This document shows positions 6,670 to 33,240 of a DNA stretch of 64,000 nucleotides, in pieces; the first letter of the stretch is position 1; the number at the start of each line of letters is the position of its first letter. A program made the position numbers and the translations under genes. The notes beneath the pieces are model-generated. The model was not told the origin of the DNA. It worked only from the letters and a program-made list of their open reading frames with translations, and did no database searches. This DNA comes from an uncultured Subdoligranulum sp. Its GTDB lineage: Bacteria > Bacillota > Clostridia > Oscillospirales > Ruminococcaceae. Location of the stretch: NCBI GenBank assembly GCA_964458285.1, contig CAYWID010000004.1, positions 147,842-211,841 on the forward strand, given 5' to 3'.

Positions 6670-6696
6670 CCGGTCAAGGGGCAAAAAAGGCGACAG

Positions 6697-6774
6697 GAAA
6701 GCCCCGCCGAGGGAGGGCGGGGCTTACAGAAAGGAGGAGGAGAAAACATGAAAAAGTGTAGTTTTGTTTGCTAC
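6697..6774 (-). ncRNA. putative anti-SD/anti-AUG small RNA, copy B
   Basis: TTGACG-17-TACAAT promoter; core CUUUUUCAUGUUUUCUCCUCCUCCUUUCUG; hairpin AAGCCCCGCC-CUCCCUC-GGCGGGGCUU; paralogue at 33124-33210. Confidence 0.75.
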
Positions 6775-6780
6775 GGTCTT

Positions 6781-6834
6781 ATTGTAACCGATTTGTTACG
6801 ATTCGTCAAGAGCAAATTGTTACGTTTTTGTAAC
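6781..6834 (-). promoter_or_regulatory. sRNA promoter with two 7-4-7 direct-repeat boxes (OmpR-family type)
   Basis: plus-strand TTGTAAC 6782, TTGTTAC 6793, TTGTTAC 6817, TTGTAAC 6828; -35 at 6804-6809, -10 at 6781-6786. Confidence 0.8.
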
Positions 6835-6971
6835 TTCCCTGTAAAAAGGCGGGCGCCCCGGCCGCCGTGCCGAAGGGGGCGCAGGCCGGGCGCGGTTTTG
6901 GCAAAAAAAGCCGCCGTTGCGCTTTGAATTTTGCGCATTCCGACAAAAAGAAAAAAAAGAATGCGCCCGTT

Positions 6972-7002
6972 GAAACAATTCTGTGACAAGCCTCGTTATA
7001 AT
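6972..7002 (+). promoter_or_regulatory. putative TCS operon promoter with a degenerate repeat box in place of -35
   Basis: GAAACAA-ttct-GTGACAA (6972-6989) then TATAAT (6997-7002). Confidence 0.5.
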
Positions 7003-7086
7003 GAATAAGGAGAATTGCGGCCGGGGTCGCCTGGAAACGGCGCGGCGGCATTTTGGAAACGGAAAACATAGGCGGAGGCATGGCAG

Positions 7087-7740
7087 ATGGCAAATATCCT
7101 GATCGCGGAGGACGAGCGTGCAATCAACAATCTGATGGCGGCCAACCTGCGGCTGGTGGGGCACGCCTGCACGCAGGCTTTTACCGGCCCCCAGGCGCTG
7201 GAGCTGGCGCAAAGCGGCGCCTTTGACCTGGTGCTGCTGGATGTGATGCTGCCCGGGCAGGACGGCTTTGCGGTGAAAAGCCTGCTTCCCGCCGAGCAGC
7301 CGGTTATTTTTGTGACGGCCCGCACCGGCCTTGGCGACAAGCTCAAGGGCCTTGGCCTTGGCGCGGACGATTACATCGTCAAGCCGTTTGAAATACTGGA
7401 GCTGCTTGCCCGGGTGGAAACCGTGCTGCGCCGCACCCGCCGCAATGCCGAGACGTTCGCTTTTAAAGATCTTTTGGTCGATCTGACGGCCCGGCGGGTG
7501 GTGCGCGGCGGCGAGACGCTGGAGCTTACCCCGCAGGAATTTGCCCTGCTGGAGGCGCTGGTCATCAACCGAAACCTGGCGTTAAGCCGAGAAAAGCTGC
7601 TTTCCATCGCCTGGGGCTACGATTACGAGGGCGAAACCCGCACCGTGGACGTACACATCCAGCGCATTCGCAAAAAGCTTGGCCTTGAGCAGGAGATTCA
7701 AACCGTTTTCAAGGTTGGCTACCGGCTCAACACGCGGTAA
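7087..7740 (+). CDS. OmpR/PhoB family response regulator
   Basis: ILIAEDE, LLDVMLP, GADDYIVKPF, winged-helix RTVDVHIQRIRKKL. Confidence 0.95.
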   Translation: MANILIAEDERAINNLMAANLRLVGHACTQAFTGPQALELAQSGAFDLVLLDVMLPGQDGFAVKSLLPAEQPVIFVTARTGLGDKLKGLGLGADDYIVKPFEILELLARVETVLRRTRRNAETFAFKDLLVDLTARRVVRGGETLELTPQEFALLEALVINRNLALSREKLLSIAWGYDYEGETRTVDVHIQRIRKKLGLEQEIQTVFKVGYRLNTR

Positions 7741-7761
7741 GCGGCGCAGAAAGGCACAACC

Positions 7762-9249
7762 ATGACAAAACAAGCCCGCCCTGCGCGGCGGATGGCCTTC
7801 TGGATGCGCACCTACCTTGCCACGCTGGCGCTGTTTCTGGCCTGCCTGGGCGGGGGCGTGCTGGGCGTTACGGTGTTGAGCCGCAACATGAGCTTTGGCG
7901 CCCGCAGCGAGGAATTTTTGACCCACCAGCATATTCTGCTGCAACAGATGGCCGAGGATATCGCGGCGGTGGCCGCCGACCGCCCCGCGGCGCTCAACGA
8001 GCTGTACACCTTTTACGGCCAGCGGGTGCGCGGGCAGGGGATGCGGCTGGCCGTGTGGCAAAACGGCCTGCTGCGCTACAACGACCAGCCCCGCCTTGCC
8101 GCCCGCCCCGAGCTGGACGCCCTGCGCCCCGGCCAGCGCAGCTGGCAGGTGCGGCGGCTGGACGGGCGGCATATCCTGTTCGCCACCACGGCCTTCACGG
8201 GCGAGCTGACCGGCTACACGGTCAGCTGCTGCGCCGATATTGAGGATTTCTACGCCCAGTGGCGGCGGATGGGCAGCCTGGCGCTGGGGCTGGGCGCGGG
8301 CGTCTGCGCGATGTTTGCGGCGGGGCTGTATCTGGTGCTGCGCCGCATGTACCGCCCGCTGGGCGCCCTTACCGCCACGGCCCGCACCCTGGCCGGGGGC
8401 GATTTTTCGGCCCGCGCCGCCGCCGCCCGGTCCGACGAGCTGGGCGAGCTGGCCCGCACCCTCAACGAGATGGCGGGCCGGGTGGAGCGCCAGGTGGGGG
8501 AGCTGGCCGCCGAGGCCGAGAGCAAGCAGCAGCTGGTGGACAACCTTTCCCATGAGATGCGCACCCCCCTTACGGCCATCGGCGGCTATGCCGAGTATAT
8601 CCAGCGGGCCGATCTGCGCGGGGACGAGCTGGCCGAGGCCGCCGACACCATCCTGTTTGAAAGCCGCCGCCTGCTGGGGCTGTCCAACCAGCTGGTCAAG
8701 CTGTCGGTGCTGACGCACGAAACGCCGGAGTTTTGCCGCCTGCTGCCGGAGGGGCTGCTGCGCCGGGCGGTGCAGACCGTGCTGCCCAAGGCCGAGGGGC
8801 GCGGCGTGGCCGTGGTGCTGGCGCCCGGCGCGCACAACGCCCCCGCCCTGGCGGGCGACGCCGATCTTTTGGAAAGCCTGCTGGTCAACCTGGCCGATAA
8901 CGGCATCAAGGCCTGCGGCGCGGGCGGCTCCGTCACCCTTTCCGCCGCGGCGGAAAAAGACGGCGGCTGCGTTTTTTGCGTGCGGGACACCGGGCAGGGG
9001 ATGGATGCGGCCACCCTGGCGCGCATCGGCCAGCCCTTTTACCGGGCGGACAAGGCCCGCTCCCGCGCCGAGGGGGGCGCCGGGCTGGGGGTGGCGCTCT
9101 GCCGCGCCATCGCGGAGGCCCACGGCGCCGTGCTGCAGTACGCCAGCAGCCCCGGCAGGGGCACGTCCGTCACCCTGCGCTGCCCGCCCTGGCGGGAAAC
9201 GCCCGGGCAGGATTTACCGGCCTGCAACATCCCCGATACAGCGCCATGA
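7762..9249 (+). CDS. HAMP-domain sensor histidine kinase
   Basis: two TM segments, HAMP (DELGELARTLNEM), H-box SHEMRTPL, N-box NLADNG, G-boxes DTGQG and GAGLG. Confidence 0.95.
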   Translation: MTKQARPARRMAFWMRTYLATLALFLACLGGGVLGVTVLSRNMSFGARSEEFLTHQHILLQQMAEDIAAVAADRPAALNELYTFYGQRVRGQGMRLAVWQNGLLRYNDQPRLAARPELDALRPGQRSWQVRRLDGRHILFATTAFTGELTGYTVSCCADIEDFYAQWRRMGSLALGLGAGVCAMFAAGLYLVLRRMYRPLGALTATARTLAGGDFSARAAAARSDELGELARTLNEMAGRVERQVGELAAEAESKQQLVDNLSHEMRTPLTAIGGYAEYIQRADLRGDELAEAADTILFESRRLLGLSNQLVKLSVLTHETPEFCRLLPEGLLRRAVQTVLPKAEGRGVAVVLAPGAHNAPALAGDADLLESLLVNLADNGIKACGAGGSVTLSAAAEKDGGCVFCVRDTGQGMDAATLARIGQPFYRADKARSRAEGGAGLGVALCRAIAEAHGAVLQYASSPGRGTSVTLRCPPWRETPGQDLPACNIPDTAP

Positions 9250-9293
9250 TACGGCGGCCGTATGCTGGGGCGTGCAAAGGAGGCTTGCAAGCC

Positions 9294-10406
9294 ATGAAAC
9301 ATTTTTTGAAAACGCTGGGCATCCCCGCGCTGCTGCTGGCGGCGGCCGTGTGTACCGCCGCGTGCGGCAGCCTGAACGGCCTGGGCGCCAAGCCCACCGT
9401 GGAGGCGGATACGATCCCGGCCAGCGAGGAGAGCGCCGTGGGCGCGGTGACGGCCCGCAGCGCGCAGGACGCGCCCTACCGGAAGGGCCTGGGCTTTACG
9501 GCGGAACCCGCCGCCACCGACCTTGCCCCCCAGGCGGCCGCCAACCGCGCGGCCGCGCTGTACCGGGATGTGGGCGGGGAAAGCGGCAGCCAGCCCTGGC
9601 TGCTCAACTACCTGCCAGCCGGCACGGCGCCGGGGCTGAACGGCGGGCGCTCGGCCTACCTGGCCGCCGTGTACGCGGACGGCAAAAGCATGGACGAAAG
9701 CACCCTCTATTTCGACTGCATCCTGGACGGCATCACCGGCCGCCCCGTGCAGTTTTACGCCAACTGGCCGCTGGCCGACATCTGGCAGGCCCTGGCGCTG
9801 ACCGACGGCCAGAGCCGGCAGCTGGCCGACGGGCAATCCCTCTCCGCGGCGGAATACGCCAATCTGGACGCCGTCTACCAGCCCATGGCCGAGCAGGCCC
9901 GCCACTGGCAAAGCACCCAGATGGACGATTACGCCGCCCTTGTCAAAAGCGCAGTGGGCCTGGCGGACGCGGACTGGCAGCGGGCGGCGCCCGCCCTGCC
10001 CGGCACGGCGCAGGAATACCTGGAAGGGCTGTATGCCGCCGACCGGCCGGGCGCCCCCGCCCGGGCGCTTGCCGTCCCCACCTACCGCGTTGCGCAAAAC
10101 GGGGCGCCCTACGTTCTGGAGATGGGCACCGCCGTTGAAAAGGCCGTCTGGTTCGGCCCCGAGCAAACCGACGACGGCGGCACCTTTTTGGTGGAGGACG
10201 ACGGCAGCTGGAACTACGCGCAGATCCCCCCCATGCCCGAGCAGAAGCCCGGGGACGAGGGCTGGTATGAGCAGGCCGGGGACGGCTCCTGGTACCATGT
10301 GGATCGGAACGGCGTGCCGGACGGCGCCGCGTCCGGCGGCACGCCCGCCACGGCGCAGGCGTCCGCCCCCGCGGCAAACGCACCGCCAGCCGGCTACAAA
10401 ACGTGA
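9294..10406 (+). CDS. lipoprotein of unknown function, third gene of the TCS cluster
   Basis: AAAGGAGG RBS; MKHF + hydrophobic stretch + TAAC lipobox; acidic/aromatic C-terminus. Confidence 0.8.
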   Translation: MKHFLKTLGIPALLLAAAVCTAACGSLNGLGAKPTVEADTIPASEESAVGAVTARSAQDAPYRKGLGFTAEPAATDLAPQAAANRAAALYRDVGGESGSQPWLLNYLPAGTAPGLNGGRSAYLAAVYADGKSMDESTLYFDCILDGITGRPVQFYANWPLADIWQALALTDGQSRQLADGQSLSAAEYANLDAVYQPMAEQARHWQSTQMDDYAALVKSAVGLADADWQRAAPALPGTAQEYLEGLYAADRPGAPARALAVPTYRVAQNGAPYVLEMGTAVEKAVWFGPEQTDDGGTFLVEDDGSWNYAQIPPMPEQKPGDEGWYEQAGDGSWYHVDRNGVPDGAASGGTPATAQASAPAANAPPAGYKT

Positions 10407-32194: not shown

Positions 32195-32274
32195 GGCGCG
32201 CCGGAACTGGCGTTTTGCCAAAAACTGTGCTATACTTTTTGGCGGATTGATGAAAAGAAAGAAGGAACGGCGCC

Positions 32275-33060
32275 ATGCTGCAACCCTATGAATTTGCCGA
32301 GGATTTTACCGTTTACGGGTACGACGGGGACTACCGGGGCCTTGCCAGGCCGGGGGCGCTGCTGCGCTACGCGCAGGAGGTGGCCGGGCAGCAGTGTACC
32401 CATTACGGCATCACCGGGGAGGTGTACGCCCGCACCCACACGGCCTATGTGCTGGCCAAAACGGCCATGCGCTTTGTCCGCGTGCCCCGCGTAGGCGAGC
32501 GCCTGACCCTGATCACCCAGCCGGAGGCCCTCAAGCGGGCCGTCAACAAGCGCCTGACCGTGGTGCGGGACGCCGCGGGGGAGGAGATTGCCCTGCTGGA
32601 CAGCCGCTGGGTGCTGATCGATACCGAAAAGCGGGTCATCCTGCGCCGCCACCCGCCCGAGGTCTGCGGCCCCTGGGCCGAGGAGCTGGGCCGCAGCCTG
32701 CCCATGAAGATGGCTTCCCGGCCCGGGGACGCCGCCCCCGTGGGGGAGCGCCGGGCCGTTTACTCCCTCTGCGATGCCAACGGCCACCTCAACAACACCC
32801 GCTATGTGGATCTGGTGCTGGACGCCCTGCCCCCGCAGGCGCTGGACGGCGCGGCGGTGGAAACCCTGCTGATCTTTTACCACAAGGAGGTGCCGCGCGG
32901 GGAAGCGTTTATGCTGTACCGGGCCCAAACGGCCCCCGGCCGCTGGTATTTTTGCGGCGTGCGGGAGGATAAATGCTGCTTTGAGGCCGAGCTTTCCCTC
33001 CGCGCGCTGCCCTGGCGGGACGGCGCCGCGGCGGGCGAAGCGCCGCAGGGCGGCGGCTGA
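32275..33060 (+). CDS. acyl-ACP thioesterase (FatA/FatB-like double hot-dog)
   Basis: LRYAQEVA, CDANGHLNNTRY motif. Confidence 0.88.
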   Translation: MLQPYEFAEDFTVYGYDGDYRGLARPGALLRYAQEVAGQQCTHYGITGEVYARTHTAYVLAKTAMRFVRVPRVGERLTLITQPEALKRAVNKRLTVVRDAAGEEIALLDSRWVLIDTEKRVILRRHPPEVCGPWAEELGRSLPMKMASRPGDAAPVGERRAVYSLCDANGHLNNTRYVDLVLDALPPQALDGAAVETLLIFYHKEVPRGEAFMLYRAQTAPGRWYFCGVREDKCCFEAELSLRALPWRDGAAAGEAPQGGG

Positions 33061-33063
33061 AAC

Positions 33064-33117
33064 GTTACAATTTGTTTACAAAAAGGCCTTGACAACTGAT
33101 GACAAAATTGTTACAAT
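33064..33117 (+). promoter_or_regulatory. sRNA promoter with two 7-4-7 direct-repeat boxes
   Basis: GTTACAA 33064, TTTACAA 33075, TTGACA 33089-33094, ATGACAA 33099, GTTACAA 33110, TACAAT 33112-33117. Confidence 0.82.
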
Positions 33118-33123
33118 AAGCTT

Positions 33124-33210
33124 GCAAGTTCAACCAATTCCTTCTTTTTCATGTGTTTTTTTCTCCTTCTCCTCTGCGCCCCCGCCAATCCCTCCGGCGG
33201 GGGCCTTTTT
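33124..33210 (+). ncRNA. putative anti-SD/anti-AUG small RNA, copy A
   Basis: own promoter; core CUUUUUCAUGUGUUUUUUUCUCCUUCUCCUCU; terminator GCCCCCGCC-AAUCCCUCC-GGCGGGGGC-CUUUUU; no sense ORF with an RBS. Confidence 0.8.
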
Positions 33211-33211
33211 A

Positions 33212-33240
33212 TTGACAGGGCGGCAGGTTTTTGCTATACT
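33212..33240 (+). promoter_or_regulatory. sigma-A promoter of the opp operon
   Basis: TTGACA-17-TATACT with TG extension. Confidence 0.88.

Follow-up and report, generated by a model that had tools for sequence, protein, structure and literature searches.

Probable tandem OmpR/PhoB-type operators at a putative anti-ribosome-binding-site small RNA of Gemmiger, with a possible local input from an adjacent two-component system

A 64,000-nucleotide stretch of the genome of an uncultured Subdoligranulum sp. (contig CAYWID010000004.1; the window hereafter) carries two copies, A and B, of a putative small RNA (sRNA) gene. Copy B lies beside a two-component system (TCS) consisting of an OmpR/PhoB-family response regulator, RR1, and a histidine kinase, HK1. 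Direct-repeat boxes at both sRNA promoters look like real operators with the 11-bp period typical of OmpR/PhoB-type regulators, since their half-sites are kept among relatives of the genus Gemmiger while the spacers drift. Judging from this distribution, RR1 cannot be what has maintained the boxes across the genus, nor can it be the original regulator of the sRNA family, because boxes and sRNA are also kept in genomes without an RR1 ortholog. The reading that we prefer, with confidence only just short of even, is that the boxes are OmpR/PhoB operators, that a genus-wide response regulator is the original regulator of the family, and that RR1 controls its own operon and has been added as an input on copy B. 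RR1 would be at best a late, local addition to the control of the sRNA.

The sRNA genes, their promoters and the putative operators lie at the following positions of the window (G000 denotes this genome).
6686-6774, minus strand: sRNA copy B (covariance-model match G000:C4:154527-154615, E 4.5e-16), with a terminator hairpin at about 6725-6700.
6781-6809, minus strand: sigma-70-type promoter of copy B (-35 TTGACG 6809-6804, 17-nt spacer, -10 TACAAT 6786-6781; 10/12 matches).
6783-6799, minus strand: putative proximal operator of copy B, GTAACA-AATCG-GTTACA, at about -25 to -9, covering the spacer and the -10.
6818-6834, minus strand: putative distal operator of copy B, GTTACA-AAAAC-GTAACA, at about -60 to -44.
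33064-33080, plus strand: putative distal operator of copy A, GTTACA-ATTTG-TTTACA.
33089-33117, plus strand: promoter of copy A, TTGACA-17-TACAAT (-10 TACAAT 33112-33117; 11/12 matches).
33099-33115, plus strand: putative proximal operator of copy A, ATGACA-AAATT-GTTACA, inside the promoter.
33121-33218 (transcript about 33124-33210), plus strand: sRNA copy A (covariance-model match, E 1.3e-18).

OmpR/PhoB-type response regulators bind head-to-tail to direct repeats with an 11-bp period. Both sRNA promoters are of near-consensus sigma-A type with 17-nt spacers according to a promoter scan, each precedes about 87 nt and an intrinsic terminator, and the two copies align from the distal box through the terminator. 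Written as 7-4-7 repeats, the distal boxes read GTTACAA-AAAC-GTAACAA (6834-6818) in copy B and GTTACAA-TTTG-TTTACAA in copy A, each followed by 7 nt and then by the -35 (TTGACA 33089-33094 in copy A). The proximal boxes read GTAACAA-ATCG-GTTACAA(T), running into the -10 TACAAT, in copy B and ATGACAA-AATT-GTTACAA(T), overlapping the -10, in copy A. An extra half-site, TTTACA at 6845-6840, lies in phase 11 bp upstream of the copy B distal box. The original prediction placed boxes 7 bp before the -35 and across the spacer and -10 of both promoters, and this layout is confirmed in the sequence. It also called the boxes identical, which holds for their geometry and consensus but not for their sequences, the copy A proximal box (TGTAAC-AATTT-TGTCAT on the other strand) being one base off the strict consensus TGTWAH-N5-TGTWAH.

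This consensus, which is that of WalR as cited in PMC9210968, has 12 matches on both strands of the whole 2.35-Mb, 63% GC genome. Four of them are at the two sRNA promoters (6783-6799, 6818-6834, 6829-6845 and 33064-33080); that is, three of the four sRNA boxes and an extra overlapping pair (6829-6845) fit the WalR consensus exactly. As a control, the pattern read backwards has 3 matches in the genome, and spacings of 0-15 other than N5 give one to five matches each, as against 12 for N5.

A covariance model built from 16 sequences finds one strong sRNA copy in almost every genome of the Gemmiger set, which comprises 41 genomes (this one and 40 relatives), and two copies in this genome only. 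Copy A is syntenic with the single copy of the relatives, in most of which the sRNA follows a thioesterase-like gene (here the open reading frame (ORF) 32254-33060), while copy B is unique to this genome; oppA is located downstream of the sRNA in this genome only. Aligned Gemmiger promoters give the consensus AtaGTTACAA…tTTtACAA.t..Cc.TTGACAaatGgTt.CAAAA.GGTTACAAT, in which the half-sites are nearly invariant and the 4-5-nt spacers and the 7 nt before the -35 are variable. The alignment reads as a clear phylogenetic footprint of a putative protein-binding site with an 11-bp period. Direct-repeat half-sites with a 10-11-bp period, conserved while the spacers vary, mark an OmpR/PhoB-type operator, and all of this is found here. 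With N5 also enriched, the boxes that had been called OmpR-type from their period appear to behave as conserved operators. A genome-wide scan for the double-box promoter, which had been proposed as a check, points the same way: the composite TTACA-N5/6-TWACA-N7-9-TTGAC has 30 matches in 28 of the 41 genomes, as against 2 control matches, and all matches compared for location are sRNA promoters save one in the genome G022. The latter (L176, G022:C38, 1456-1560) is a box-plus-TTGACA promoter before a PadR-family gene, 7 kb from the sRNA of that genome. The layout, in which 7-8 nt part the box from TTGACA and a further box spans the spacer and -10, is found at the sRNA promoter and almost nowhere else. 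In two relatives, G014 and G008, the proximal box is lost and the distal box is kept; the distal box is the one that all species retain.

Beyond the genus, 80 other genera of the family give no covariance-model match at E <= 1e-5 under strict filters, and the weak matches in the order are mostly antisense of lipoprotein gene starts. One weak match in another family of the order (L039, in G032) has CUUUUUCAU…UCUCCU, a strong terminator and the upstream repeats GTTAAC-GGCTG-GTTAAT; this arrangement may be a distant analogue of the sRNA with its box layout. A pattern scan of the genome contigs for the sRNA core was set aside as too promiscuous, its hits being mostly antisense of real gene starts.

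The sRNA is predicted to fold into an unpaired 5' part of about 50 nt followed by the terminator hairpin (z-score -3.5 for copy A and -3.8 for copy B). The open 5' part reads CUUUUUCAUG…UCUCCUYCUCCU, the antisense of a strong Shine-Dalgarno (SD) sequence and AUGAAAAAG, and in copy B it holds the anti-AUG CUUUUUCAU and the anti-SD CUCCUCCUCCU. An unpaired stretch complementary to the ribosome-binding site (RBS) and AUG (CUUUUUCAU and CUCCUYCUCCU), in an RNA ending in a terminator, is characteristic of the csRNA class, and the likeness to csRNAs that had been proposed is borne out by the anti-RBS/anti-AUG 5' part and the terminator. Rfam at the gathering threshold gives no family for the sRNAs, a tRNA being its sole match in the window. 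A small ORF on the opposite strand, with a strong RBS and ATGAAAAAG, was rejected as coding: hand translation gives it anything between 5 and about 60 codons depending on the species, it lacks a promoter, and the terminator is oriented the opposite way. The RNA reading is preferred because this ORF is not conserved. Single target candidates stand out, such as the lipoprotein mRNA at C5:60340, in which 10 + 13 nt are complementary to copy A.

The neighbouring TCS, divergent from copy B, comprises the following features.
6972-6989, plus strand: putative operator of the RR1 operon, GAAACA-ATTCT-GTGACA, at the -35 position, 7 nt before TATAAT 6997-7002.
7087-7740, plus strand: RR1, OmpR/PhoB-family response regulator (Pfam: receiver domain and Trans_reg_C).
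7762-9249, plus strand: HK1, histidine kinase (Pfam: HAMP, HisKA and HATPase_c).
9300-10406, plus strand: probable lipoprotein gene (…LLLAAAVCTAACGS…), third in the cluster, with a provisional start; no Pfam family.

The degenerate box GAAACAA-N4-GTGACAA that had been noted before this cluster is present (GAAACAA-TTCT-GTGACAA in 7-4-7 form). The promoters of RR1 orthologs carry TGTAACA-N4-GATACAT-N6-GTTATAAT in seven of eight relatives, with variable spacers. As in an autoregulated TCS, a conserved operator thus stands in the operon's own promoter, and its placement at the -35 position implies a putative positive autoregulation, in agreement with that part of the original prediction by which RR1 acts on its own operon. 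The other part, by which RR1 governs the sRNA family, does not hold. Orthologs of RR1 (69-80% identity) are present in only 8 of the 40 other Gemmiger genomes, boxes are kept without RR1, and the synteny check that had been set beforehand finds the ortholog on the contig of the sRNA in none of the eight (0/8), the copy B arrangement being unique to this genome. In the complete genomes G001, G002, G009 and G011, the best match of RR1 is about 48% identical, the level of a paralog, and the sRNA and boxes are kept. In G014 and G008, where HK1 is 59-60% identical, the gene preceding the orthologous TCS is uppS-like, judging only by the translation of its 3' end, and no sRNA lies between the two; the third gene has no match in the stretch examined downstream of the kinase gene. 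The RR1 TCS is patchily distributed and probably moves horizontally. In another relative, G007, a 110-codon ORF (L210, G007:C43, 663-995, minus strand) has only an RR1-like DNA-binding domain (…RTVDVHIQHLRKKLGLGREIQTVYKVGYRLS) and no receiver domain; it could be a remnant, or else a winged-helix protein that stands alone. In the relatives G011 (L172, G011:C45, 1853-4800) and G002 (L173, G002:C52), the sRNA is separated from the thioesterase-like gene by an insertion of a TraX-like membrane protein gene and an OmpR-type TCS. The inserted TCS is an unrelated one with a different recognition helix (TAITQHIKNIRAKL), and these two genomes are a second, independent case of a TCS beside the sRNA.

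The bearing of RR1 on the two copies was judged with a matrix made from the half-sites of the RR1 operators of five relatives, this genome being left out, under six matrix settings. Among 4.69 million genome positions, the copy B proximal box ranks first in all six settings and the copy B distal box ranks 24-106, the copy A boxes 11-154, and the RR1 operator of the window itself 169-223. RR1 operators invariably have GTAACA as their first half-site, and this is also the sequence of both inner half-sites in copy B, but not in copy A or in any relative. The chance that a new copy adjoins an OmpR-type operon is roughly estimated at about 0.5% (six operons, about 2,300 genes). The first rank for the relatives' matrix, the GTAACA half-sites and the low chance of adjacency together make a species-specific input of RR1 on copy B plausible, and we tentatively regard such a capture of copy B as possible, at somewhat below an even chance. 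A promoter rewiring still in progress, in which one copy has kept the genus-wide regulator and the other has been converted to the GTAACA of a patchy TCS, is a less probable extension that we would call unlikely.

RR1 is patchy and shares a contig with the sRNA in none of the relatives, and copy B occurs in no other genome of the set; the ancestral regulator must therefore be genus-wide. Six OmpR-family regulators are encoded in the genome, among which the best candidates are the WalR/MtrA-like RR4 and RR5, followed by RR2 and by RR3 of the Pho locus. RR4 has the top score for the MtrA and YycF models; for YycF (NF040534), RR4 reaches 239.6 and RR5 212 bits, sub-cut-off scores that are compatible with a clostridial WalR, this model being built on Bacilli. 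RR5, which has its best score with the YycF model, is present as a single copy with 80-90% identity in 37 of the 41 genomes, and its operon order of lipoprotein, response regulator and histidine kinase is that of Clostridioides difficile walA-walR-walK (PMC9210968). Matches like RR2 and RR4, with matching gene length and span, are found in almost all of 15 Gemmiger genomes searched. G007, which keeps the sRNA, has RR2, RR4, RR5 and an RR1-like fragment only (RR2 and RR4 confirmed by sequence) and no PhoP-like regulator; it narrows the candidates weakly, its distal box region being cut off by the contig end. No strict-consensus box pair is found near any regulator gene in the relatives when coordinate lists are compared by eye, which fits weakly with a non-autoregulated WalR-like system; wal operons are not autoregulated (PMC9210968).

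RR3 lies in the Pho locus beside a PhoR-like kinase, a Na/Pi-PhoU protein and pstSCA, with intergenic half-sites of the TTTACA type. Between the nptA/phoU-like gene and pstS (G000:C11:5010-5160), TGTAAAATCCGTGTAAA and its near-inverted copy TTTACACGGATTTTCCC are about 115 bp apart, and more TTHACA-like half-sites are located before pstS.

The other eight consensus pairs of the genome lie near a gene for a BMP-type lipoprotein (named from sequence only), a gene for a repeat-rich secreted protein, plsX, purE, the Pho locus and an XRE gene. This genome and 11 relatives share the pair RTTACA-AWWTG-GTTACA, which precedes an orthologous XRE-family regulator gene by 230-530 nt. Here the pair is at G000:C5:30779-30795, CACAATATTTGTAC follows about 45 nt after it, and the downstream gene is at C5:31015-31692; the locus may belong to the same regulon as its second member. 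A third promoter of the same type, at G000:C10:39076-39104, was rejected as a member, its RNA being conserved in the genus and the promoters of the relatives having no box. This stand-alone RNA of about 210-230 nt (G000:C10:39110-39335; about 410-640 of L050) is present in at least nine Gemmiger genomes, has an invariant 3' part (…GACGCUCUGUUUUUCUCCUUCUUUUU) with a terminator and the conserved upstream motifs TTGCACAAA and TTGTACA, and belongs to no Rfam family.

On our preferred reading, each sRNA gene would have a near-consensus sigma-A promoter bracketed by a distal and a proximal operator. At low regulator levels, a dimer of an OmpR-family regulator at the distal site (about -60 to -44) would recruit or stabilise RNA polymerase, and at a high level or phosphorylation a second dimer at the proximal site (about -25 to -9) would block the promoter. 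The 5' part of the sRNA, with its anti-AUG and anti-SD, would pair with AGGAG-N8-AUGAAAAAG initiation regions and block ribosome binding, the putative targets being typical initiation regions of lipoprotein and substrate-binding-protein mRNAs. RR1 would drive its own operon via the same class of operator at the -35. In this species only, a duplicated sRNA copy would have landed beside RR1 and its half-sites would have become GTAACA, so that copy B probably gained RR1 as a second input specific to this lineage.

Several results weigh against this scheme. No regulator, RR1 included, reaches any NCBIfam equivalog cut-off (YycF needs 340), and TTHACA-like half-sites are seemingly used by several regulators (Pho locus, RR2 promoter); for these two reasons, the motif alone cannot name the protein. 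NCBIfam, PDB matches and gene neighbourhood likewise singled out no regulator. None of the other eight consensus pairs adjoins cell-wall hydrolase genes. In addition, the RR1 matrix is based on five sequences, and the duplex energies obtained in target prediction are no better than those of shuffled sRNA.

Control of both copies by a single genus-wide regulator (RR4 or RR5, or else RR2 or RR3), with the adjacency and motif likeness of RR1 being coincidental, is unlikely in our judgement, although the phyletic pattern of the boxes fits conserved regulators and not RR1. TTACA-type half-sites are common among OmpR-family operators, and the unrelated TCS beside the sRNA in G011 and G002 suggests that TCS-carrying islands insert near this locus. 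However, coincidence has to face the low chance of landing directly beside one of the six OmpR-type operons, and the two half-sites that changed in copy B both match precisely the GTAACA that is invariant as the first half-site of RR1 operators, which makes the copy B proximal box the top match of the genome. That in this species RR1 acts on both sRNA copies as well as on its own operon, as CiaR does with the csRNAs, seems to us quite doubtful. Copy B is divergent from RR1 and adjoins it, the operator of RR1 itself is conserved, and all four sRNA boxes are in the top 150 or so positions for the RR1-operator matrix. On the other hand, the copy A boxes match this matrix no better than do those of species without RR1, and selection on the boxes in genomes without RR1 means that another binder exists, presumably still present here. 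Copy A is also 26 kb away, in an arrangement older than the patchy distribution of RR1. Binding by another kind of factor, or mere promoter architecture (UP-like A/T-rich DNA, phased bends), is improbable: the core promoter is near consensus and needs no activator, the region is rich in A/T although the genome has 63% GC, and a second conserved site precedes the XRE-family gene, but what is conserved is specifically the TTACA half-sites spaced at 11 bp, with drift in the A/T-rich spacers, N5 is enriched genome-wide, and the same motif recurs at the -35 of a response-regulator operon across eight species.

There are some known systems with which the Gemmiger sRNA can be compared. The csRNAs of Streptococcus, controlled by CiaRH (PMC8186281; PMC3091779), are also short stand-alone sRNAs with stretches complementary to RBS and AUG, paralogous copies, an intrinsic terminator and an 11-bp-period direct repeat for an OmpR-family regulator. 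However, the CiaR box is TTTAAG-N5-TTTAAG (PMC8186281), whereas the Gemmiger boxes are GTTACA-N5-TTWACA and two operators flank a complete -35/-10 promoter. The Gemmiger sRNA also differs in having no Rfam match, in its Oscillospirales lineage, in being mostly present as one copy per species and in having candidate regulators only. LhrC1-5 of Listeria monocytogenes, under LisRK, are likewise TCS-dependent multicopy sRNAs (in Gemmiger, TCS control is putative), and their CU-rich motifs block translation of cell-envelope protein mRNAs (PMC4132741). There is no sequence relation between them and the Gemmiger sRNA, which has one long anti-initiation stretch instead of three redundant CU-rich loops.

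As to the regulators, the exact consensus of three of the four boxes and of the extra overlapping pair, the lack of strict pairs near regulator genes and the operon order of RR5 are WalR (YycF)-like, while the scores below the YycF equivalog and the lack of cell-wall hydrolase genes beside the other consensus pairs are not. To our knowledge, no sRNA has been reported to be under WalR control. Bacillus subtilis PhoP boxes are TT(A/T/C)ACA repeats with an 11-bp period, and PhoP-activated promoters lack a -35 element. The sRNA boxes read in the direction of transcription fit this consensus, and the Pho locus here has similar half-sites. By contrast, the sRNA promoters have a consensus -35, and G007 keeps the sRNA without a PhoP-like regulator, its distal box being cut off by the contig end.

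Collectively, the Gemmiger sRNA is a putative new member of the class of TCS-controlled anti-RBS sRNAs, placed outside the csRNA/CiaRH and LhrC/LisRK families since box sequence, operator layout, sequence family and lineage all differ. Circuits of this kind, with a TCS driving an anti-RBS sRNA, have been described before in streptococci and Listeria. For Gemmiger, which is abundant as a commensal of the human gut, the literature searched yielded no report of a regulatory RNA. The present analysis provides a genus-wide sRNA with a sharply defined operator and a short list of candidate regulators, and it corrects the tempting inference that an adjacent regulator is the regulator. It also offers a possible natural case of an sRNA paralog recruited to a second TCS. 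If this rewiring is true, two envelope signals would converge on the same lipoprotein and transporter initiation regions, and if the genus-wide input is WalR-like, this would be, as far as we know, the first link of that system to a global anti-RBS sRNA.

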